A DNA stretch of 62,776 nt, filler included, from Perkinsus olseni (lineage: Eukaryota): NCBI GenBank assembly GCA_013115125.1. It is 32 parts of 32 records of this genome, joined end to end, with 100 filler letters (N's around TTAATTAATTAA, not from the genome) between each part and the next. Parts side by side here need not be neighbours in the genome. Positions count along the whole stretch, not along the records: positions 57,135 to 58,950 come from JABANN010001725.1; 31 more parts are not named here. One strand, given 5' to 3'. Shown here piece after piece: positions 1,921 through 59,403 of the stretch (its first letter is position 1; the number at the start of each line of letters is the position of its first letter). The position numbers and the translations under genes are program-made. The notes beneath the pieces were generated by a model. That model was not told the origin of the DNA. It did not search any database and worked only from the letters and a program-made list of their open reading frames with translations.

Positions 1921-2020
1921 NNNNNNNNNNNNNNNNNNNNNNNNNNNNNNNNNNNNNNNNNNNNTTAATTAATTAANNNNNNNNNNNNNNNNNNNNNNNN
2001 NNNNNNNNNNNNNNNNNNNN
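1921..2020. other. Artificial contig linker (N44-TTAATTAATTAA-N44), repeated about every 2 kb through the window
   Basis: The identical 100-nt spacer, with stops in all six frames, recurs between all segments; segment lengths decrease steadily from ~1920 to ~1810 nt. Confidence 0.98.
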
Positions 2021-3940
2021 CCCAGGCTCGCTGATGTGTCGCTTGCGCGACAGTTTATGGTTTTTGGCAAACCCGGCGCCTTACCACCTAGCGAAACCCT
2101 ATTCAAGTTCATCGGCAGGCTGGAGACCCTAGCTGATGAACTGGTCTATCTACGGGCTGGGCCTCGGCAATCTACGCTGAAAAGACGACTCTATGATGGA
2201 CTCACCTCTAACCATCTTAAGGAGAAGGTTGAGATCGAAGTGGGCGATCACAGAGTCTCCTATGAAGAGTTCGTCGAACTACTGTCGGACTATGACCGCA
2301 GACGTCTAGGACGACAACGCAGAGCAACTACGGCCTCGGGTACCATCGAAGGACCTCAGCTACGCAGAGACAAACCTGTCTCTAGCTCGCGCCCTAAGGG
2401 ACGCGTTCACACCATCGAGTGTGATAGCGAGGACTCTGACATCGATGACTACAGCAACTACTGCTACGCAGTTGGGGCTGATCTGGTATCCATCAAGTGC
2501 TATCGCTGTTTGGAGAGTGGCCACCCTGCGCGTCTATGCACCGCCCCTAATGTCGCCCAGGTGGACTCTCGTTGCTCTAAGTGTGGTAACCCTAACCACG
2601 ATCAATCTACCTGCGAGGTGCCGAGCCAGAGCCTGAAATGCTTACGCTGCCAGCAGAAGGGACATCTAGCCTATGTCTGCAAAGCTAAGAAACCTACTGG
2701 TGGACAGCCTAAGAAGGGGAGTTCTAAGTCTAAGACCAACAACAAGTCGGCTGAGAATAAGGGTTCTAAGCCGGGCACTAAGGATGAATCTACTACTAAG
2801 GTTAATCCTCCTAAGACTCCCCCGTCTAATTCCGAAGTTGTGACCTCGGTTGGTAATGCACATGCCATCCAGGAGGCTTCGAGCGATCTATGTATTGTCC
2901 CCGTCACCTCCGACGACGTGGATATCAACTTCCATGCTCTGACACCGGACACTTCATCTAGCTCTAGGCAGAGTTCCAAGCGAGCTACTATGGTGGTCGG
3001 AGATCTATGTGTTTATGGGACTACTAGACCTGTGCTCTTTGACACGGGAGCTGACGTCAGCCTTATAGCTCTATCTACACTTCGGAAGCTAGCCCCCGAC
3101 AAGAAGATACGTCTACCTACCAACTCACCCATTGGGAGAGTCAATGTTGCCAACGGTGGACAACTAAACATCTTGGGCAAGGTCAATCTACCAGTGGGGT
3201 CTGGTAACTATAAGGTAACTGACACCTTTCTATTGGCCTCCGATCATCTAAGCACACCTATCATCATAGGATGCTCTACGATGGCGAAGCTCAACGCTGT
3301 TATCTCCTTCTTGCCTGGCGGGTCTGTACGTGTCACTATTGGCAACAAACTAGCTCCAGATCTACGGGTTGAGCCGTGTGAATCTCTCATGTCCCCCCGA
3401 TCTACGGCGCACGTTCGCAAGGTTGGTGTTACGTGCCTTAGCGAGAGTGCACCATCTAAAACGTGCTGTCGACAACCAGCACCAAAGGGGGCGATCTATG
3501 ATGCGACTTGGTCAGAGGATCCTACCGGAAGCCTCCGAGCCTATAAGTCGCTGAACCCCAACTGCGGAATCTACCCGGAGATCTGCGACGGTGATCTATA
3601 TGACCCATCGACCCCTTACGACGAGCTGGGTGACCCTGCTGGTCCCACCAGCGTCCCTACTATCGTTCGAGATGATCTACCTCCCCAGCGTGCGATCGAA
3701 AGGGAATGGGTCGAGGATGAGCTAGCCCCAATGGGGAGAGCTAGGCCTCAAGTTCCGTGGAAACATCCCACATCCAGGCCTCGCTACAACTACCACATGG
3801 CTGCCAAGAGAGGGTTAGCATCTATCAAGGCTATCACTGGCGAACGCATGGAGATGTTCCATCGAGCCCTTGGTGGTAAGGCGCCGGGTTTGCCAAAAAC
3901 CATAAACTGTCGCGCAAGCGACACATCAGCGAGCCTGGGC
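2021..3940 (+). mobile_element. LTR retrotransposon Gag-protease polyprotein (BEL/Pao-like), partial
   Basis: Three CX2CX4HX4C knuckles (CYRCLESGHPARLC, CSKCGNPNHDQSTC, CLRCQQKGHLAYVC), protease VLFDTGA, and VPWK...NYHMAAKR resembling the BEL/Pao pre-RT motif. Confidence 0.85.
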
Positions 3941-6339
3941 NNNNNNNNNNNNNNNNNNNNNNNNNNNNNNNNNNNNNNNNNNNNTTAATTAATTAANNNN
4001 NNNNNNNNNNNNNNNNNNNNNNNNNNNNNNNNNNNNNNNNCCCCAATACTGTACGACGGATTGAGATATTCAGACGCCCTCGCCAATACTGTACGACTGA
4101 ACGATTCGAACTCTTCTTGCGTGAAGTTCCCTCTAAGAATCAGATATTTACACTTTTCTGTCCCACCACACAATGACAACGCATGATATTCCTGCGAAAG
4201 GAGACTCCTCTGAGGTCCTCAGACTGAGGAGTTCAGAGCTCACTCATCCGATAAGTCTTATCGCGATCGATGGAAAGGGCACGATCCGTGCCGCATGGAG
4301 ATCCCCGACGGGGAAGTTCCGTCTTCCCTGTCTTCCGGAGCGCAAGTTGCGGTCATGGCCCAGGAGAGCAGCTCAGCCGGCCTCGCAGTGGTAGTGAGGG
4401 TGGCGGGGCGTATCATACGCCCCGTATGTGATGGCTTTTCCCTTAAGCATAATACAGGCATTCGTTGTTCAGTTGACGCTTCGTTTGTCTGAGCCACCCT
4501 CTTCCTTGGATTTCCTGCGGACCACTTCGACTTCCGGCTTCCTGTCGTCAGATGACGACGCGTCAGATTGCGTCAGATTGTCGTCAGATTGCGCGACGCG
4601 GCTTCCTGTCACAGCGTGATTTCCATTGCGTCAGATGGATGACAATCAAGACGCCGCACACGAAGAATGACAGCAACACTCTGCATGCTGGGGTGGACTG
4701 GCGAACCAAGGAGCGGGGGGACGGCTGAGGACTTGCTCCTTATCCAGAACTTAGAGAGGTGATAGCGTGTGCCGTGCATTGGGTATTATGAAAGTGTGCA
4801 TTGAAAGCTCTGATTAATCACGTCTCCGAGAATTTCGCGCTTTTGTGCCCCTGTGACTGATGACGTGTGCGGCGTATGAAAAGAAAGCGCTGCTGCGCTT
4901 TTCTAGATGATGGCCTGCCGTACTTGAGCAGCGAATGACGGGTGTCTTTTGTCTCAGAGTTAGTCCAAGTCCGAGTTCCTCGGCATCTACTGCTAGCTCG
5001 ACTACCGGCTCTGATATCAATGCTGGTGGTAGTGGTCGCGGCGTAGGCGACTACCGCCCTGTGTAGACGGGCCACACCGCGAGGAGACTGACTCTCGCCA
5101 GCAAGGCAGTCCAGTGGACGGGAGAACAGCAGCCGCAGTCGTGGACGGAGATGGCGGTCGCGGCAGGCGTCATGTAGCGCGGGGAAGTTTAGAGGGACTT
5201 TATCGACTTTCATTATCACGTCCTCATCGTTCGTTCCGCTCTCGTGCTTGCATTTGTTCGTGACGTCACTGCCGTCCCTGGGATACGTTAGACTATAAGG
5301 ATCACTCACTGACTGAAAAGTTCTACTTAAATGCTCATTGAGCATTCAAGTTGGATACTGTAAGCCTTTAACTAGAACTAGTAGTAACTGGAGCGCGCGA
5401 CAGGGAACACCCCTCGAGACCAAATTTGTGAATGCAGGAGATTGAGTAAACACTTGAAATTCTATGATTGTTACTACTTTTCAGTCGGTCAGTAAGTACT
5501 TTCATACATAAAGGGGCGCGCGTCCAAATGCGCGAATAAGGGGAAATTTGTGGCATTGCGCACATTGCGCCTTATGCGCTATATTCATAACAGGCTGTTA
5601 TTAACAGCCTTCCGAACGCGCCTACATATACCACCACGATCCTCCTTCTAAAGAAGGAAGATTGTTAAATTAACTGTTAAATTAACCAACCTCAACCATT
5701 AAAAGGTTTCCTCCAAGTTGAAGGAAGGCTTCAACTCTGCGTCAGGCAGAGTTGAAGGCAGACTGCCTGTATCCACTCTGCGGCAGAGTGACAGAGTCTC
5801 TGCCAGTATACTATTATAGTATTCACCTAGCCGAAATCTCGGACGCGCCTGTAGCTCGACCGCGTCCCGGCGGCGCGCCCGGCCGTCGCAAAATTACGTT
5901 ACGGACCGTTACGGCTGACTTTTACGGTAACGCTTCAAGGCCCGTAACGTAAAGTTACGNNNNNNNNNNNNNNNNNNNNNNNNNNNNNNNNNNNNNNNNN
6001 NNNTTAATTAATTAANNNNNNNNNNNNNNNNNNNNNNNNNNNNNNNNNNNNNNNNNNNNCAACAACACCTGGGATGGACATAGGATTGAGTATAATGGGA
6101 ATTAAAGCTTCTTCTTCTATCCATTTCAGCCGGTGGGCTGCAACCGTTTCATGCAGCGAATATTGGGCGAGCGAGATTCGTGCGTGCGCGCGCGAACACG
6201 CCCTCCCCAGATAGCTATAGTAATGACGGACGGATTCACTCTAGTAGCAGTTAGCAGAAATGAACGCATGGAGTTGTTGTTGACTCCGTATGGATCCTAG
6301 AATTACTGTAGATGACGAAAACACCAAATAGTCTCGACG

Positions 6340-6926
6340 GAAGTTGAACCAGCTCAAGCCGTTGTGGACATTGTCAAAGACGTAGGTGAGATTGAAGTCG
6401 TGGAGTCGACTGTTGACTCGATAGGACTTGTGGAGGTTGAATCACCTGATAGCTTTGAGAGAGTTGACCAAACGATCGTTGTGGTTGATGTCGAAGATGA
6501 AGGTGTGTAGAGTTGAGAAGTATGCAGTGAGGCTTGTAGTGACACCGATGTGCTTGAGGGTCAGGTCACAGTAATGCCGACATCGTTGTTAAAAAGGGTT
6601 GTTGAGTGCGAAGCCGAGAGGATCGAAGTGGTCCTTGGGGAATAGTGGTAGACTCGGAATAGAGCTAGCAGTAGGGGTAATCTGCCGGTGTTGCGCTGAT
6701 ACCGAGAGTGGGTAGTAGTGTGACAGGGATAGTCATAGTTGGTTCCTGATGCTGATGGAATGGCCGAATAGAAGGTGTGGTAGCAGTACTAGTGAATATA
6801 GAATCACCGAGTAGCTTCGACAGTGTTGAACCAGCTTTAGCCGTTGTGGTTATTGTCAAAGGCGTGGGTGAAGTTCAAGTCGTGGAGTCGATTGTTGACT
6901 CGATAGGACTTGTAGAATGAATCACC
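6340..6926 (-). pseudogene. Degenerate Ser/Thr-rich repetitive coding relic with a diverged direct duplication (~6345-6446 and ~6826-6926)
   Basis: Two near-identical blocks (gtcgtggagtcgaYtgttgactcgataggacttgt) about 485 bp apart; short S/T-rich ORFs broken by frameshifts. Confidence 0.45.
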
Positions 6927-6927
6927 A

Positions 6928-7966
6928 GGGGCCTATTCAAGTGATTCTCGTTTCCGGGTTGCGAGTCCGAGGGAAATTTACCGGGTCCCGAGTCCGAGGA
7001 GTACTTGTCCGAGACATCATCCATTCAAGTGCTCGGGTTGATTTTACGAGTATATTCTCCGATTACCGGGTACGGGTCACAATTCCAACTGTTCAAGTCC
7101 TCCTCTGCATAAATTTTCCGAACTCGGTGACAAACCTCTCACTCGGGAAAATAGAAAGTTGCGCGTTTCGTGGATACGTTTCGTAGAATCAACACAAAGG
7201 TGCAGAATCTGCATGACAACGAAACATCGATCATGAATATGATGATTGAGACAGATAGACTACTCAGAATCTGCTTGAAAACTACTCTCAGACGACGATT
7301 CAACAAGATCATCATCAACCACATCTTCCTGTTCCACAGCGTGGACGATGAGCAAGTTCCTGAGAGCGGCGAGGCACGAATCACTTTGGCTGTCAGCTGC
7401 ATCGTGTCATCAGCGGTATGACGAGATCCTCTAACTCTTAGGTCCTTCAGACAACGGAATTGGGTTTTGAGAACACCGATACAACGCTCAATGACAACCC
7501 TCCCTCTTCTATGTCGTTCGTTAAACTGAATCTCATCGGCGGTAAGAACCCGTCCACCGGCCGACGACACCGACGTCTGGAGGTAAGGGGTTGCCCTATA
7601 GCCACTATCACCTAGGAGCACCACGTCCAAGCCATCAGGGCGCCACCCATCCTCGAGTCTGGCCGACAACGACGAGTTCCTGAAGACCCGGCTATCGTGG
7701 ACTTTGCCGCCCCATCTAGCAGACAAAGCACATATACGCATAGCACTTGTGCATACAATCATACAGTTGATAGAATGCTCGTGATGGCGATTCACATAAC
7801 TCTCCTCAACTTCATGAGGTGGGTGAACCTTAATGTGACTCACATTATGTGAGTACCATCAACAGCCGCCCACACATTCATCATGCCACTAGCGGTATTG
7901 AGGATTGATGCGCACTGACTGCCAAGTTCTGCCTTGTATATGCGTGCAGTGTGGTATGCGCATGCG
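6928..7966 (-). mobile_element. PIF/Harbinger DNA transposon 3' part with frameshifted HARBI1-type DDE transposase
   Basis: Motifs AAVDGTHI, HSINCMIVC, WGGKVHDSRVF, LLGDSGY, FNERHRRGRVVIERCIGVLK. Frameshifts at ~7840 and ~7372. A candidate terminus GGGGCCTATTC at ~6928 is less certain. Confidence 0.88.
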
Positions 7967-9563
7967 NNNNNNNNNNNNNNNNNNNNNNNNNNNNNNNNNN
8001 NNNNNNNNNNTTAATTAATTAANNNNNNNNNNNNNNNNNNNNNNNNNNNNNNNNNNNNNNNNNNNNGTTGAGAGGAGGAATTGGACTCTTCTCGAAGTGC
8101 CGGTTATGAGACACATGCCGAGTAAGCGTGATGTAGAAAAGTTTCTGAAACCGTTTCTCATGTGATGTTGACGTGCTGTTGAGTTGCTGGAGTTCGGTGC
8201 GGCTGATAACAGTAAATTATGATAATGGTGAAGTGCTAGTTGATCTGATTTTGTTACAATATCGCTCATTAAAATCAGTGGAAGTCTATTAACGGTGAAC
8301 GCCAAGTGCGCTCGCCATTTTCACATGTTCATTGAGACCCGCTCGCTTTCGGCTCGATTGAGCAGACCATTTGGCCTTGGCGTCAAGTTCTGCACATAAT
8401 GACAGAGTGGTCACGAGAATTTCTAATACCCTTTGGACCGGGCTTGTATTGACATGCCTTTCGCGAGCCGCTCGTGGAAGGCATGTCGATAGACGCCGGC
8501 GCACCCCGCGCGCGAATCGTCCGTCTCGGGAGTTCAGCGCCGCCTGCAGGATTTGAACTAGGGTGCTTCCGAAGTCAACAGCGACGCTTATCCGTTTGAC
8601 CGAAAAGGACCCCTCGTAGAGCTCATTCGTTGAGCCGTACCGTAGTTCAGCTTTTTCTTCCGTACTGAAGACTGCGGCTCGCCCCAGTGCACTTTGTGTC
8701 TGCCTGCACATTGTCGGCTTGAGGGCAGTTCAACCTTGCTTCCTTGGGCACGGGTATTTACATCACCGAGTGATTACCACTCTCGTTGAGTTGATGAGGT
8801 GTGTTGCGGAGGACAGCCCCGGGTTACCCTGGAGGCTTCCACTCAAATGGTCGCCGCCATCTTTTTGCCCACCCCCTTTTCCAACCGCGCGCGCCCCGTG
8901 GCCCCGTCCGTTGGTTGAACTTGCTCCCTTACGGGAACTCCACACATGAACTCTTCAAACTGCGTATGTCATGCGACAATCCCAGGAAAAATGCTTCCGG
9001 TCGGATGGAACTCGCGACCCTCCGCTGACCAGACTTCAGCCCTGTCCATTGCGCCAGATCTCTGATGAATGTATCTTCACTGTTCACAGGCGTCGTGAAC
9101 GATTTCTTCCGGTTCACCGGCTTCAGGATTCACTCTTATCAGGACCACCTTGCCGTGATGCGATCTACTGTACAGCTGTGAGAGGCCGCCCAACCGCTTC
9201 ACTCGAAAGATGCTCAGCGAGTGAATTCCATGCAGGTCGGTGGTTCGAGTGGACAACATGACATCCTTGAAAGCATGAGTAGACCACCACGATCCCGTGG
9301 CAGATTTCTCTGATGGTGAGACGCCAACTCAACAGCTCTACTGTGGACTCTCAAACTGAGGAATTGAGATTCATTGATAAGTTCTCGCTGACGCGTTGAG
9401 CAGCACGACCGAAACGATTCACGATGTGGTAGTTAAACGATGTATCAGTCGAAGATGTGAATTTGACATCTTCGACTGATATAGCGTTTATCTACCGTCA
9501 AGAAGACGCTGCAGCTAACAACTGCAGCTCGAAGAGTAGAAATAATCGAATTCAAAAATGAGT

Positions 9564-9972
9564 TCATTGCTGTCCTTTGGTGTAGAGGTCGTAGTACACG
9601 CCTTCTCGGGACATGAGCTCGTCATGAGAACCTTGTTCTACAAGACGACCATCGGCGATAACGAGAATGATATCGCTACGTTTGATGGTGGAGAGCCTGA
9701 GTCGAAGCGTGACTAGGAGCGAATATGCGGGGATCAGGGGAGGTCCTACCTATGAGCTATCGTGAATGTAGTCCTTCCAACCGCTGCTGTCTCGAGAGCA
9801 TCTTGTACCACTCTTTCGCTCGCGGAGTCAAGCGCCGAGGTGGCCTCATCGAGGAACATGACCTGATCAACATGCAGTCTTCAATACAATAACCCTCCCT
9901 TTCATCGAGGCCTCACCAATGGATCTCGAACCAGGGCTCTCCCTATGGCTGTCCTTTGCTTCTGGCCGCCAG
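9564..9972 (-). CDS. ABCB/MDR (P-glycoprotein-type) ABC transporter, C-terminal NBD exons; introns 9863-9916 and 9697-9749
   Basis: Spliced translation [99 protein letters not shown]; both introns are GT-AG. Confidence 0.93.
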
Positions 9973-10072
9973 NNNNNNNNNNNNNNNNNNNNNNNNNNNN
10001 NNNNNNNNNNNNNNNNTTAATTAATTAANNNNNNNNNNNNNNNNNNNNNNNNNNNNNNNNNNNNNNNNNNNN

Positions 10073-11976
10073 TCGGCCTCGGATCGTGTGGATGGAAGCC
10101 TGAGAATCTGTGAAGAGATGCCATTCTATACCTCTGTGAGCCGAATGGCTCAGCCATCGCAAGGCTCTGCGGATGGCTTCCAGCTCGCACTGGTGGATGG
10201 TGGCGAACCGCTCAAGCTTGAAGGCTTGGCGCTCCACCACTTCTCCGTCCTTGACAGCCAGGAAGGCACCGCCGGCGCTGTCGCCGAACTTGGAACCATC
10301 AGTGTAGATGGCGGGACCTCGGTAGGCCGATGCCAGCTTGATCGCATCTTCTCTTGGGTGGATGGAGGCCGGGAGGGAAGGACGCCAAGGCGGGAGGGGA
10401 TGGGACTCGCGTCGGTCCACTCGCCACAAAGGCTCCGCCGCTTCAGGCCCAAGGGCCGCTACCAGATCGCTGGAAGTACCTGTGGTGGCGCGGCACCTTC
10501 CCGCCAGCATCCTCAATTGGATACTGGCTGGGCAGATGCCCGCCAAAGCTTGACATGCCGCATGTGAGGCACTTCTTGGGGCTCTGATCGATATGCGGGC
10601 CGCTAAGCCCGATACCGAGTCCAGGGCCCTGGCCAGCTTCTCATCCTCCAGAGCTCCGACCCAGACGCTGACAGCGTGGGCCATAAATGGCACCACGGCC
10701 AACTGGTAGGTCTTCAAGATACGCCTGGTATCGAGCCCAGCCCGCTCCCAACCCAGGGCGTGTAATTGCCCTAGGCGGGAACGAGCTTGGGCAGCCTTCC
10801 TCTTGACGTGCTCCTTAAAGACCAGTCGCTGGTCGATTACCAGCCCAAGGATGGTGACGGTCTTGGCTCGGCTAATGGCCTTGCCGTCAATCATCAAAGC
10901 TGGTACCTGGAGCTTGGCAGGGGAAAGGTAGTAACACTTACTGGGGTTCAGGCTGAGCCCAGAGGCTCGCGACCAATCCGAGATCCGAGTCTCGATCTGG
11001 AGCCATCGCTCCCTGAACTCTCGGACGCCTTTGGTCGTGAGGACCAAGGTCTTATCGTCAGCATAGAAGGTCGAGGTCAGGCCAGGGATGGGCCGGAGCA
11101 GCGACGCCAAGGACAAGGTGGAGATGGCGTAGAGGAGAGGTCCTAGGATGCTTCCTTGGGGGACTCCTCTCTCCAGCGAGATGGTCGCTTGGTCGGCTCC
11201 GAACTCCAACTGGACGTGTTGTCCAGTGAGCCAGGACTTCAGTGTAGTGCAGAGATAAGGGGCAACGCCAAGGCCTGAGAGCTGTTGGACGAGAAACGAA
11301 TGCTTTACTGAATTAAAAGCATTGGATTCATCCAATGTGAGGAGGAGGGTCTGGTGACCCTTCCTCCCACAGCCAGCTCGGTAGGCATCGACGATCCTCT
11401 TCAGCGCCGTGTCGCAGCTTCGGCCTCGGCAGAAGCCATGGATCTCTGGCACTCGGAACTTCTCTCCTAGGCCGTGGATGAGTCTTTCGGCTATCACCGA
11501 CTCCAGCAGCTTCGAGGCGCACCTAAGGAGTACTATTGGGCGCCAGCCCGAGGCCTGGAAGATGTCGCGGCCAGGCTTGGCCAGGGCAATGCATTTGCCC
11601 TCCTTCCATTCGGCTGGAAACTCGCCGGACCTAAGGACATCGGTGAAGGCTGTGGCCCATTTGGCCGCCAGTTCAGGCGCCGTCTTCTTCAGGACTTCAG
11701 CGTTGACGCCGTCATTCCCAGGGGCGGAGATCTTCAGACGGCCGATGGCATCCAAGACTTCTTGTTCCGTTACGGCTGGGATGCGATCTGCGGGACCTAC
11801 ACCAACACGAACCTGGGCCATCCCCTGGGACCGCCTAGGGTCCCGAGGGAACAGCTTCTCCAATAGATGGGCTGCCTGGTTGGTGCTTGGGTCGCCATTC
11901 AGGATCGCTGCTGCTGACTTGCTCTTCGGCGGTCGGATGCACTTGGAGAAGTCTTGGAGGGACGCATAGAAGCGGT
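10073..11976 (-). mobile_element. Non-LTR retrotransposon ORF2 fragment: reverse transcriptase plus RNase H
   Basis: APGNDG, WRPIVLL, HGFCRGRSC, GVPQGSILGPLLY, YADD, then RNase H motifs IYTDGSK, QCELEAI, FTDSQAS. Confidence 0.93.
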
Positions 11977-12091
11977 NNNNNNNNNNNNNNNNNNNNNNNN
12001 NNNNNNNNNNNNNNNNNNNNTTAATTAATTAANNNNNNNNNNNNNNNNNNNNNNNNNNNNNNNNNNNNNNNNNNNNCCTCGTTCTCGTAGG

Positions 12092-14169: not shown

Positions 14170-14247
14170 TCCACACTGGCGTAATGGTAGAGCGCGCGGT
14201 TGGCACTCACGAGGTCGTGGGATCGATTCCCACGTAAGGTGTTTTTT
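14170..14247 (+). pseudogene. tRNA-like element (A box, B box, T6 terminator) with non-pairing acceptor stem
   Basis: TGGCGTAATGG A box, GTGGGATCGATTCCCAC T-arm, then GTTTTTT; 5' TCCACAC cannot pair with 3' TAAGGTG. Confidence 0.65.
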
Positions 14248-21951: not shown

Positions 21952-22425
21952 NNNNNNNNNNNNNNNNNNNNNNNNNNNNNNNNNNNNNNNNNNNNTTAAT
22001 TAATTAANNNNNNNNNNNNNNNNNNNNNNNNNNNNNNNNNNNNNNNNNNNNCCGTAACACTCACTGTGAGACCATTCTCGCTCGCCCGACCGAATCACTT
22101 CCGCTGTAGTTGACCCTAGCCTCTGTCGGGACTCTCCATGAAAATGGTGAAGGGCGAGAAAATCCGGGTTTGTGAGGTTTTGACCCACTAAAAGTGGTGA
22201 AACCCTGAAAGTGGTGAACAACAATCTCGCCCGCCTCGAGATGAACAAAATTATGTGATATGGGCAATTTAGTACCATTCCTTCTCGAACCAACCCACCT
22301 TTCTATCGCCAGTCCCTCACATAGAGGCCTAGTAATACGTGGTCAAGTTATGGGTTACTCGGTGGGTAGCGGGGAATACAATCGACATCGAGGCCGCTTT
22401 TGTTTTTTCACGATGCCTCCGACTA

Positions 22426-22979
22426 GGGTAATTCCCAAAATCCAAGGGAGGAGTACAAAATCCAAGGAAGCGTTTTCAGGGATCTGCATTACCTGGGCAA
22501 TAGTTCGGGTTTCTGGTTGACCTGGGTAACAGTTCCGGGATCGGGTTGCCCTGTCCGGGATCGGGTTGCCCTGCCCGGGATCGGGTTGCCCTGCCCGGGA
22601 TCGGGTTGCCCTGGGTAACAGTTCCGGGATCGGGTTGCCCTGCCCGGGATNNNNNNNNNNNNNNNNNNNNNNNNNNNNNNNNNNNNNNNNNNNNNNNNNN
22701 NNNNNNNNNNNNNNNNNNNNNNNNNNNNNNNNNNNNNNNNNNNNNNGGATCGGGTTGCCCTGGGTAACAGTTCCGGGATCGGGTTGCCCTGGGTAACAGT
22801 TCCGGGATCGGGTTGCCCTGGGTAACAGTTCCGGGATCGGGTTGCCCTGTCCGGTTTCAAGAGGGGTTTCTGGTTTCCCGTTCCTGCCTTCATCCGCAAT
22901 CCAGGGGTTTTTTTCTGTTGCTTTTGCCCCCCTGTCGCACGCGCTTCCTTGGATTTTGTACCTTTTTTGTACTTCACTC
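22426..22979. mobile_element. Non-autonomous Mutator-like element with 9-bp TSD and internal minisatellite
   Basis: TSD CTCCGACTA at 22417-22425 and 22980-22988; termini GGGTAA.../...TTCACTC; perfect 20-bp subterminal IR at 22453-22472 and 22942-22961; internal 29/20-bp tandem units (gggatcgggttgccctgggtaacagttcc). Confidence 0.75.
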
Positions 22980-23670
22980 CTCCGACTACCACGAGTCGTG
23001 GTCTACGAAAAGCTCGCGTATATTCAGTTCTGCGATGGCTCAGTTCTGTTCTCGCACGCCAGATATTTCATTGTGTGAAACGGTCGAGCTGAACTAAGCT
23101 CAACGCTAGTAGCTTTCACCATGGTCTGACGGTCAGACTCTGACCGAATCACCGTGTGATTGATCGCTACTAGTGAGTCGCAGTATTGACCGTTCTCAGT
23201 GCCCTTCTTTTCTTTGTTGTTCTCTCCTTCTTCGATCCTCCCTTGGATCTGCTCCCTCTGATCGTCAGCTCCCCCTGGTCGTCCGCTCCGTAGTATCTGA
23301 TCTGCTATCTGTACCTCTTCTATCTCCTGTGCGTCGTGTTCGACATGGAGACAGACACCGTCCCTTCCGGCGGACAAACTGGTTCGTCACACAGGAATTT
23401 ACCATTGGAAGCGCCTGCTAGTCGCGCGAGCTGAATTTTCTTCAATTTAGACGGTGGATGTTGGCCAATCAAGGGCCGACGCGGACTGTCTCCCAGAGTT
23501 ACAATCAAGTACCGCGTATGAAGTTCATATGCATATTATGGATCATTTCGTAAATCTTCGGTTGGTTTCTCACAGGTTCTCTCCGTGATGCGAATCCCGC
23601 CCTCTGGACTCGGGAATCTCACCTTCGAAGCAATCTACTGTAAGGTTAGTTCTGTTCTTGCCTCCATTCA

Positions 23671-38066: not shown

Positions 38067-38205
38067 GAATGGTCTAAAATCCAAGGAGAATGGTACAAAA
38101 TCCAAGGAGAATGGTACAAAATCCAAGGACTGCCCTTATGTATTCCTCCGGTTCCGGGCTGCCTTGGGTTACAGTTCCGGGATCAGGTTGCCCTGTCGGG
38201 TTCCG
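38067..38205 (+). repeat. Relic of the same repeat family as 22426-22979
   Basis: Three 21-bp units (gaatggtacaaaatccaagga) followed by gggttacagttccgggatcaggttgccctgtc. Confidence 0.8.
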
Positions 38206-38267
38206 CCTTCCAAGGAAGTCGTCGATTTCCTCCTCCATCTACGTGCATCTACGTCCATCTCCATCTC

Positions 38268-38347
38268 CGTCGTCATTCCTTGTTTGATCCTAATTGCTCG
38301 CTAGACGCAAAAGCCCAACTAAGGTCTTGAGCCAAGATGGCTACGGA
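38268..38347 (-). ncRNA. Spliced-leader RNA-like locus (22-nt SL exon 38347-38326), no GT donor; 3' end approximate
   Basis: TCCGTAGCCATCTTGGCTCAAG matches the perkinsid/dinoflagellate SL; downstream TTGGGCT pairs with GGCTCAA; a second stem TTGC..GCAA follows. Confidence 0.8.
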
Positions 38348-46102: not shown

Positions 46103-47295
46103 TTATGAAGCGAGTGGAAGGAAATTCGCCGCAAGCATGCAACGGGCACTTCCCCCCGATATCTCGATCGTCCTCAGAGGCACCGGCACGACCTCAACGT
46201 ACTTACCGAGAATGGCGAGTTGGAGTTCAGTCAGTGAAGAGAATGCTGTTTCCGAGAGCACCAGCCGATGCACCCCATCACAGCCTCGGAGCTCAAAGGC
46301 GTTCCCAGCGAAGTTATCCACTTGGCTTAAAGACAGCGGTATGATCTCCTTCCCTGTATCCATCAATTTCGTTTGCAGTCGAGCTTTGTCTTCCTCGTCT
46401 TTCACAGAGTCCAAGCCCACCAGCGCGAAATCGGTTCCCACAGTGAGCATGACATTAGTGTGGTAGATAGGGACATCTCTGGCGTCGAGTGCAGAGAACG
46501 ATACAACCTCGTAGTCAGGGAAACGACTGCCCCACTGAGCCAAACCCTCGCTGGTTGCTCTCTGCGAGAGAGCTACGTATACCACTCGGTTTGGACAATC
46601 GAAGACCAACGCACCTGTCCCTTCTAAAAACGACCCTGTTTCTTCCAATCTAGTAAAGTCCACGGATCGTTTGACGTTGTAGCCCAGCCACTGTAGCTGA
46701 GCTAGTAACCTGTTTAGTAGCCGGCGTTCTAGACGACGGGTGGGAGCGAGCATGGGGTAGATGACAAACGTACCATCAGCATGAGTAGTGAACCAGTTAT
46801 TAGGGAAGATGGCATCGGGCTTCGGAGGCCGTGCGACGTCCTGCAATACAGTTACTTCAACCTGAAATGGCTCAACAGTTGTCGACTCAACTGAACCGCT
46901 GGAGAATTGAATGCCTAGCCTCCTTCGAGCTGAATCAGACCCTGAATAATCTACGGTCGGCCCGAACCACGCGAGAGCGCGGTGAATACGGCGATCCTTC
47001 TACCCTAGGGCGCGGTGAATACGGCGATCCCTCTACGCTAGGGCGCGCTGACTAGCGACACGCAAGGCACATTTGCACCATCGAGTCGTTACAACAATGA
47101 GTCGAGGCTTAACTTAACAGTATCCCGCAGAATACTGACGAAGTTGTCGAACTCTCCTTGGGCCTTCAGAAGGAGATCTTCCTGGTCCATCCCAACTGCG
47201 GTCTGGAACGCGTTGTCAGCTGCCGTCTCAGGGTTCGAATAGAATACCGCCGGGCGAACCATGATGACCGCCGAGGGTGATTGTTGGCAAGACAT
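46103..47295 (-). CDS. Amidinotransferase/pentein-fold hydrolase (CtlX-like citrulline/arginine utilization family)
   Basis: VIMVRPAVFYSNPETAADNAFQ, PDAIFPNNWF, YPMLAPTRRLERR, FLEGTGALVFD, IYHTNVML, FAGNAFEL, GGSARCMLA; interrupted at about 47115-46860. Confidence 0.88.
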
Positions 47296-57034: not shown

Positions 57035-57472
57035 NNNNNNNNNNNNNNNNNNNNNNNNNNNNNNNNNNNNNNNNNNNNTTAATTAATTAANNNNNNNNNN
57101 NNNNNNNNNNNNNNNNNNNNNNNNNNNNNNNNNNATCGGATAATCCTGGCGTATGAGAGTCGAGTAGACTGCCCGAGAATACCTCGATGAACATGCGGGG
57201 TATTCCAGTCAGGGACCCGCTCCTAACTCAGAACATCCTTCATAGTGGACACGAGTGAGACTCCATTATTGAGCAAACGTCGCGAATTAGGCTCCCTGCC
57301 GTAAACAGCAACGGCGATTCTAGCAGCAAATCAGATCCGTCGGACTCAGAAGCTTCCGTTCATGATCAATCCCACAGTGGTTTTCCCACTGGTAGTTTCA
57401 ATTGTCAGATTTTGGCCAAGTTGGGGGATCTTGGCGAAATTTGGTAGCCAGTCCCATGATTATAGTATCATG

Positions 57473-57554
57473 GACACTTTGGCCGAGTGGTTAAGACGGC
57501 GGCCTGGTAAGCCGTTGGGCTCTGTCCGCGAGGGTACGAATCTCTTAGGTGTCG
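57473..57554 (+). tRNA. tRNA with a Ser-type body and a GGT (Thr) anticodon, probably a pseudogene
   Basis: 82 nt; acceptor GACACTT/AGGTGTC+G; anticodon stem GCGGC/GCCGT with loop CTGGTAA; long variable arm; T-loop TACGAAT and a D-stem mismatch. Confidence 0.75.
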
Positions 57555-57692
57555 TTCCTGCAGATGGGTACGTTCATGTCAATCCTCATGAGTATCAATA
57601 GTTCTGCAGATGGGGTGGATACAATATACTGCGTAGGGTGGTATGAAGTTCTCGTCTCTCCGCTCTTTGTCGCATGGTATAATCGGTAGACA

Positions 57693-58021
57693 GAGTGAAT
57701 CCATTTTTCTGAGGAGTTTTCCGGTATCCTGAGGATGGCTTTGGAGCTCGCCCGACACTACTAACCCCTTACACTGCGCGGCCTTCGGGTTTTTGGTGAA
57801 GGTCGCCCGAAGGGCGACCTGAGCCGGGTTTCGGGTTGACGGGGGTTACGGTCCGCACTCCACTAGGTCTTGGTCAACTTTTTTAAGGCGTAACAGCCTT
57901 ACATCCGAGCTACTAACACGCTCATTCTACTGCCGTGCGAACTCACAATACTTCAATCCAAGGCGGGCGAAATACCATTCCTCACGATTCTACTTTTTTC
58001 CTCAGAAAACCGACTTTACTC
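57693..58021. mobile_element. 329-bp Mutator-like non-autonomous element with 10-bp TSD
   Basis: TCGGTAGACA at 57683-57692 and 58022-58031; imperfect ~60-bp TIRs GAGTGAATCCATTTTTCTGAGGA vs (rc) GAGTAAAGTCGGTTTTCTGAGGA. Confidence 0.8.
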
Positions 58022-58037
58022 TCGGTAGACATGGATA

Positions 58038-58111
58038 TACCCGATGCAGGATTCGAACCTACGACCATCTGCTCCGTAGGCAGACATTTTATCCAGCTGA
58101 ACTAATCGGGC
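58038..58111 (-). tRNA. tRNA-Arg(ACG)
   Basis: GCCCGAT/ATCGGGT+A acceptor, TCTGC-CTACGGA-GCAGA anticodon arm, GTAGG-TTCGAAT-CCTGC T arm; D-stem has one mismatch. Confidence 0.85.
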
Positions 58112-59403
58112 AGTTGATGGCCTGGCAATGCACGTATCTTGGACCGGCAGGTCCATCTCGATCACCATGCCAAAAATTGAATCATCCGGACGATAATCGC
58201 ACCGAACGATCCTATGAGTAAAGTGGACTGCCCGAGAATGCTTCAGTAATCATGTTGGATACTCCTATCAGGGGTCCTCTCCCAACTCGGAGCATTCTCT
58301 CTACTGGATACAATCAGGTCACATGTGAATTCATTATCGTGGATACTTCGCGAGCTAGGTACCCCGCTGAGGCTGCTGAAAATACCATCGGCGATTCCAT
58401 CGGCTGTGCCGAACTGCGATGAGTTCCTCCGTCTCTCCATAGACGTAGCCTATGATTATGACCATCGTCCTGTCCTTTACCTTCACGCTCACCTTCTCTC
58501 TCGCCCTCTCGTGACGTGACGCGCCCTACGAGCCCCACACGTCATGTCTCTGGGTTTTCAGATTTTTCTTCAAGTTTTCGGAACTAGCTTCCCGTCTGCC
58601 TTGCCTAGGCCGAGTTCGTCAATTGGCACACTGCACATCGAGGTAGGTGCGATCAGATAGCTCTCAAGTTTCAGGGAGGCTCGTCGACTCATCCAGCTGC
58701 TCGACGATAGGCTCGGGCAAAGAGTCAACTTCCGGGCCTCTTAATTTTGTCGCCATTCCCGAGATTTTATCGCAACTCAGAATTCTTCTCGTGAGGTCCT
58801 CATCGGAGAGTCCACTAGCCGCAGTGGAATATTCTGCATGGGAGAAAGAAGCGAGTTTACGACGAATATCTGCGAGACTCATAAAGTAGCTCAAGTGCCA
58901 ACCACCGCGCGGAACCGACTGAATCTTGAAACACTCGCAGGGTCGTAGAANNNNNNNNNNNNNNNNNNNNNNNNNNNNNNNNNNNNNNNNNNNNTTAATT
59001 AATTAANNNNNNNNNNNNNNNNNNNNNNNNNNNNNNNNNNNNNNNNNNNNTTTGGCACCGTGGGGCTTATGGCGATTCGCCATTGGTGAAGATGTATCTA
59101 CGCACTTGAAGTGAGAGTTACATGGTCATGGTCATCGCGGAGTCGCGGCTCGATAGTGCTGGCTATAAGCGCCGCGGTGGAGCTTGTTTCGCGTGCACTA
59201 CTGAACGCAAACATCTTCGCATGGTTATAACATCTCATTACCACAACGAGGCAAGAACCCGCATATCGAATTTCACACACAGTAGTCAAACCTACACGAC
59301 TGAGGACAGGCTACGGCACGAATTGTCAACGACAACAGACTACAAGGGCCCCCTTCGTCAGCAATCCCTCGTTGAGGTTGTAATGGATAAGAACGGACTC
59401 AGT

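Follow-up and report, generated by a model that had tools for sequence, protein, structure and literature searches.

We found that positions 57693 to 58021 of the window (the whole stretch of DNA that was analysed, 62,776 nucleotides) hold a real, recently mobile and polymorphic miniature DNA transposon, probably Mutator-like, whose interior gives no evidence of a structured RNA. On the combined evidence, we are fairly confident that this 329-bp element is a non-autonomous cut-and-paste DNA transposon (MITE), most likely of the Mutator-like kind, and that its GC-rich middle is ordinary internal sequence. The content of the window is eukaryotic, with a U6 snRNA gene, three tRNA genes and many retrotransposon ORFs carrying RT, RNase H and integrase domains; Perkinsus is a parasite of shellfish. 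The result adds a recently mobile, polymorphic MITE to the little-described repeats of a Perkinsus-like genome, provides an insertion of the type that serves as a strain or haplotype marker, and takes what had looked like a novel structured RNA off the list of leads.

Structure of the element

The element is bounded by two exact copies of the 10-bp sequence TCGGTAGACA, at 57683-57692 on the left and 58022-58031 on the right, and it ends in terminal inverted repeats (TIRs) at 57693-57752 (plus strand) and 57962-58021 (minus strand). The left repeat is best kept over 57693-57715, and the right one is placed both by the alignment and by contigs whose loose ends fall at 58021. When the two ends were aligned as inverted repeats, 18 of 23, 31 of 48 and 39 of 61 columns were identical, with an alignment score of 52. 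Shuffled sequences scored 24.3 +/- 4.2, and none of 2000 attained this value; among 2000 segments of 329 bp drawn at random from the window, 2 did. Both the 10-bp target site duplication (TSD) and the diverged TIRs of about 60 bp, which a sequence-only reading of this DNA had reported, are therefore present. Direct repeats of this length are not rare in themselves, since about 60 pairs of 10-bp repeats lying at most 1 kb apart are expected by arithmetic in 62 kb; we regard the TCGGTAGACA duplication as real because it abuts the tips of the inverted repeats and because an empty site and loose contig ends coincide with it.

Each end carries a pair of short motifs. On the left, CTGAGGA occurs on the plus strand at 57709 and 57729, and on the right, CTGAGGA occurs at 58005 and GTGAGGA at 57985, both on the minus strand. 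Paired YTGAGGA-type motifs about 20 bp apart in each end are arranged as binding sites of a transposase would be. Such an enzyme, acting in trans, could bind the inverted ends of about 60 bp, each through its two YTGAGGA-type motifs, and integration through a 10-bp staggered cut would then duplicate TCGGTAGACA. The present copy inserted into the 144-bp spacer that separates two convergent tRNA genes, its hairpin-bearing, GC-rich middle presumably travelling as ordinary internal sequence of the family and not as an RNA gene.

The element has no coding capacity: all frames through the core are interrupted by stops, and the one long frame, which measures 132 aa from stop to stop (57823-58221), exits through the duplication and runs antisense to the neighbouring tRNA gene. 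The whole element folds with a z of -4.1, because its ends pair.

Empty site and copies elsewhere

Public contigs of the runs X1, X7, X8 and X11 were compared with the window at 80% likeness; summed contig depth as used here is not copy number, and depth per contig is unfit for ranking the parts of the stretch. One contig in X8 (depth 99.9, shorter side 43 letters) joins 57682 directly to 58022, skipping 339 bases, with the 10 letters of the left duplication fitting either side. This joint reads as an unoccupied site with a single copy of TCGGTAGACA, and the 10 shared letters argue that no extra letters lie between its two sides. An empty-site allele of this kind is what the sequence-only reading had proposed to look for. 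The X8 flanks are about 5% diverged from the window, with 26 substituted letters and 10 gaps counted over 58135-58635, and the empty site therefore belongs to a diverged haplotype or strain. It may be ancestral or an excision product, because Mutator-like elements flanked by their duplication can excise precisely, according to the section of PMC5225508 on such events. A further joint, 57656 to 58026 with 369 bases skipped, was seen in X1 at depth 334.8 and in X8 at depth 175; this may represent a second form lacking the element, coexisting with the occupied allele within one run.

Other contigs leave the window exactly at the ends of the element. At 57693 they do so in X1 (7 contigs, agreement 0.45) and in X7 (4 contigs, agreement 0.54), and at 58021 in X1 (4 contigs, agreement 0.56); these loose ends, running into dissimilar flanks, indicate copies elsewhere. 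In X1, the summed depth is 1945-12070 over the element against 152-450 in the flanking DNA, both between the tRNA genes and outside them. Internally deleted or diverged variants were also found, with one joint in X1 (57743 to 57981) and four in X8 (57771 to 57888, 57794 to 57888, 57784 to 57996 and 57798 to 57951), and X11, a run labelled as another organism, contains 57872-58019, differing by 3 letters and by a gap of 24 letters. Within the window there is no further copy of the element, the best match being 28 nt at 82% (E 0.061). The data show that the insertion is polymorphic and the family multi-copy, and the features by which a MITE is recognised are all found: small size, TIRs, a TSD, no ORF, many copies whose flanks differ, and an unoccupied site.

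Assignment to the Mutator-like superfamily

The sequence-only reading had called the insertion a Mutator-like element. That it is a transposon is borne out by the empty site and the loose ends; its membership of the Mutator-like superfamily is likely, and is judged from the length of the duplication and the inverted repeats only. The 10-bp TSD falls within the 8-10 bp range that the relevant part of PMC5225508 gives for Mutator-like elements. The same part describes their TIRs as typically longer than 100 bp, whereas similarity between the present ends is recognisable over about 60 bp (64% identical); the greater length is typical of Mutator-like elements, not obligatory.

The element resembles non-autonomous Mutator-like elements (MULE-derived MITEs) in its 10-bp TSD, in TIRs that begin with GAG and in having no coding capacity, and also in being multi-copy with a polymorphic insertion. 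It differs from them in that its TIRs are diverged and about 60 bp long, compared with the more than 100 bp given as typical in that part of PMC5225508, and in that the window contains neither a MURA-type transposase nor a longer element with the same ends. A full-text literature search (Repbase not included) returned no description of a Mutator-like element or MITE in Perkinsus.

No Mutator/MURA-type transposase ORF is present in the 62,776-nt window, and a Pfam search at E up to 1 of uncharacterised ORFs near the site gave nothing useful. The only DNA-transposase ORF seen in the window is of the PIF/Harbinger type (7142-7858, minus strand, DDE_Tnp_4 domain, E 3.5e-31). PIF/Harbinger elements make a TSD of 3 bp. 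To our knowledge, the duplications of eukaryotic DNA-transposon superfamilies other than Mutator-like are shorter than 10 bp, which speaks against a MITE moved by the transposase of another or undescribed superfamily that likewise makes 10-bp duplications. We consider such an origin unlikely, even though it would suit an element linked to no transposase, with TIRs shorter than those typical of Mutator-like elements, in a window whose one DNA-transposase ORF is PIF/Harbinger-type. The Dada transposons, with a TSD of 6-7 bp and without terminal inverted repeats in the account given of them in PMC3706591, offer it no support either.

The GC-rich core

The core of the element (57780-57884, plus strand, 59% G+C) contains a hairpin and a T6 run. 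The features that had led the sequence-only reading to see in it either a Pol III ncRNA captured by the element or a structured RNA encoded by it are all there: the hairpin AGGTCGCCC-GAA-GGGCGACCT at 57800-57820 (9/9 paired), the stem TAACCCCT / GGGGGTTA at 57762-57769 and 57841-57848, the hairpin GCC-TTCG-GGT at 57781-57790, and the T6 run at 57879-57884. In addition, a U5 tract lies between two hairpins. The T6 run has the form expected of a T-run terminator, and the U6 gene and the tRNA at 14170 also end in T6. The RNA interpretation itself is not upheld, given that Rfam is blank, the fold is at the level of shuffles, and neither a donor for the core nor any compensatory change was found.

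At gathering scores over the whole window, Rfam placed no family within the element, and at E up to 10 over 57400-58200 the element's best match was a CD-box model (E 2.6; 12.7 bits, where the gathering score is 38). The minimum free energy of 57740-57885 relative to dinucleotide shuffles has a z of -0.58 on the plus strand and -0.46 on the minus strand, and that of 57780-57884 has a z of -0.98; the stability of the core does not exceed that of shuffled sequence. The window is rich in perfect 9-bp hairpins, with 23 rows at about 14 loci where 30 Markov simulations gave a mean of 1.6, and the 9-bp hairpin of the core is therefore undistinctive. These results weigh against the alternative that the core, from about 57780 to 57884, is a small-RNA gene carried or captured in Pack-MULE fashion, transcribed from the plus strand and terminated at T6, which we regard as improbable despite a core that begins with G and ends in T6.

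Variation among the copies was compared with the same alternative. The proposed helices pair 57762-57768 with 57842-57848, 57793-57798 with 57823-57828, and 57800-57808 with 57812-57820. The two best-supported variants within them are A>G at 57763, facing T57847, and C>T at 57824, facing G57796, both majority letters among the copies. Both keep the pairing as G-U, on the plus strand only, as a plus-strand RNA gene would favour; each is a one-sided, single transition, and no compensatory two-sided change in the core helices was seen among the run contigs, which counts against such a gene.

Part of the distribution of the core among contigs is at odds with plain internal sequence. Summed depth peaks in the bin 57811-57871, at 12070 in X1 and 18750 in X8, about 5 times that of the element ends, and this counts against the plain-internal reading because such sequence does not predict it. 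So do the contigs of X8 that lack the core, by way of the joints 57771 to 57888 and 57794 to 57888. A small-RNA gene would draw support from this depth peak, from the shared end of both core-removing joints at 57888, and from a 343-nt contig in X7 that matches 57780-57884 only, with 16 other letters. The depth peak may instead arise from cross-matching of a minisatellite family at the 80% threshold. The core has an imperfect internal duplication, TGGAGCTCGCCCGA/TGAAGGTCGCCCGA and CGGCCTTCGGGTT/CGGGTTTCGGGTT, and 57825-57852 is 82% like 22506-22533 (E 0.061), which borders a 20/29-nt minisatellite; in sequence, the core thus weakly resembles a local minisatellite. Such imperfect repeats, and the likeness to a minisatellite-bearing repeat, are a further argument against an RNA gene.

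Four loose-end consensuses precede the core. Those at 57764 and 57781 are, by eye, homologous to the upstream window, so the contigs concerned are diverged copies of the same element and not foreign context, which likewise disfavours an independently carried gene; for the consensus at 57780, no likeness to the upstream window was seen by eye.

In its fullest form, the RNA interpretation would make the 105-nt core (57780-57884) a mobile Pol III-type small-RNA gene of Perkinsus inside a Mutator-like shell, with a core better conserved among subfamilies than the ends and missing from some copies. If this were true, the element would be spreading an unknown ncRNA through the genome, a proposition that we likewise regard as improbable. 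The element is like Pack-MULEs in having a Mutator-like shell around an unrelated-looking interior and in the absence of the core from some copies, and unlike them in that no donor gene for the core was found in the window, in Rfam or in two metagenome scans. Two exact core patterns gave 0 matches each in these two scans. Ordinary internal sequence of the family remains the reading that we prefer for the core.

Several other candidates and observations concern the core. Matches to the 19-nt hairpin in viral contigs (3 loci) had only the hairpin in common and were set aside as chance. A spliced-leader RNA was rejected, as the 21-nt Perkinsus leader (PMC3101222), or anything like it, is absent from the element; this absence also stands against a small-RNA gene in the core. 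A mitochondrial rRNA fragment was dropped because the core is 59% G+C and Perkinsus mtDNA is AT-rich, as reported in the relevant section of bioRxiv 10.1101/2022.02.17.480897. None of the public runs containing the stretch is recorded as RNA. In X7, whose status as RNA is a guess, the right half has a lower summed depth than the left half and the core; we conclude nothing from this, because per-contig depth cannot rank the parts. X7 also has a loose end at 57873, which we take to be a sequencing adapter.

Insertion site and tRNA genes

The right copy of TCGGTAGACA lies next to a tRNA-Arg(ACG) gene on the minus strand, at 58038-58111 by Rfam (57 bits) and at 58037-58112 by ARAGORN. It ends 6 bp (Rfam) or 5 bp (ARAGORN) from the 3' end of this gene, in agreement with the 6 bp given by the sequence-only reading. 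On the other side of the insertion site, a convergent tRNA gene occupies 57473-57554 on the plus strand (ARAGORN; 43.3 bits in Rfam). It is 82 nt long, with a Ser/Leu-type body, a long variable arm and a G discriminator. Its anticodon is GGT (Thr) according to ARAGORN and the Rfam alignment, despite the Ser/Leu-type body, and position 57525 is C in nearly all other copies of this tRNA in the public runs.

Association with tRNA genes invites a comparison with the Dada transposons of Perkinsus marinus, which, in the part of PMC3706591 describing them (Kojima and Jurka 2013), lie inside tRNA genes, have a TSD of 6-7 bp and no TIRs, and measure 4.7-11 kb. Like these, the present element is a DNA transposon found with tRNA genes of Perkinsus; unlike them, it lies outside the tRNA gene, has a 10-bp TSD and TIRs, and is 329 bp long. 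Its membership of Dada as there described is excluded by the insertion 6 bp outside the gene, the 10-bp TSD and the TIRs.

Targeting of tRNA clusters, which the sequence-only reading had suggested, is not supported by the other copies. The present copy, 6 bp from a tRNA 3' end and between two tRNA genes, and the tRNA-targeting Dada transposons described for Perkinsus in that part of PMC3706591, would fit an element directed to the 3' flanks of tRNA genes. The sequences around other copies are discordant (agreement 0.45-0.56), with a consensus that does not resemble a tRNA; other tRNA-Arg-like copies part from this locus right at 58038, so that the target 10-mer is no shared trailer; and in the window, neither the U6 gene at 30444 nor the tRNA at 14170 has a copy beside it. 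Perkinsus species carry more than 500 copies of five tRNA types according to the corresponding part of PMC3706591, and a single insertion beside a tRNA is therefore no evidence of targeting. We judge targeting very improbable.

The tRNA genes appear to belong to a repeat of their own. The stretches 57445-57566 and 58055-58115 have a summed contig depth of 20000-54700 in X1, with flanks at about 150-450, and other tRNA-Arg-like copies have conserved sequence common to both sides, with loose-end agreement up to 0.9. The high depth and conserved sides point to a high-copy tRNA-bearing repeat or array, for which the more than 500 tRNA copies given in PMC3706591 offer a comparison.

Without the element, the spacer between the convergent tRNA genes is 144 bp (57555-57682 plus 58022-58037), and runs of at least four T or A are absent from it. 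In the same window, T6 follows directly on the U6 gene and on the tRNA at 14170. Each inverted end of the element offers a T4-T5 run, 12-16 nt inside the element, to an inward-reading polymerase; as a side point, these runs might be relevant to the two convergent tRNA genes that have no T-run of their own.

The U6 snRNA gene is at 30444-30546 (Rfam, 108 bits), and a 71-bp tandem repeat (30169-30328, 2.3 copies, 91% matches) is found just upstream of it. A host gene for a DDAH-type amidinotransferase was recognised by protein comparison at 46106-46999 on the minus strand; its product is 97-100% identical to proteins named as Perkinsus olseni and 67% identical to a P. chesapeaki protein. On this basis we take the host to be P. 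olseni or a very close relative.

A second candidate element and a spliced-leader relic

A second candidate element was observed at 22416-22988, where CCTCCGACTA occurs at 22416-22425 and 22979-22988 and flanks 553 bp. It has the subterminal inverted repeats GTACAAAATCCAAGGAAGCG, with an end-to-end score of z 3.8, and contains a 20/29-nt minisatellite at 22491-22849. Its ends have no significant match to those of the element at 57693-58021, and a 10-bp repeat at this spacing can be chance. Motifs related to this candidate recur at 38067-38220.

The Perkinsus spliced-leader exon (PMC3101222) has an exact 21-nt match at 38326-38346 on the minus strand, the only exact match in the window, which is preceded by T and followed by AC instead of GT. 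Leader relics without an intron have been described in Perkinsus (PMC3101222), and because AC replaces GT, the match at 38326-38346 resembles such an intron-less relic and not an SL RNA gene.
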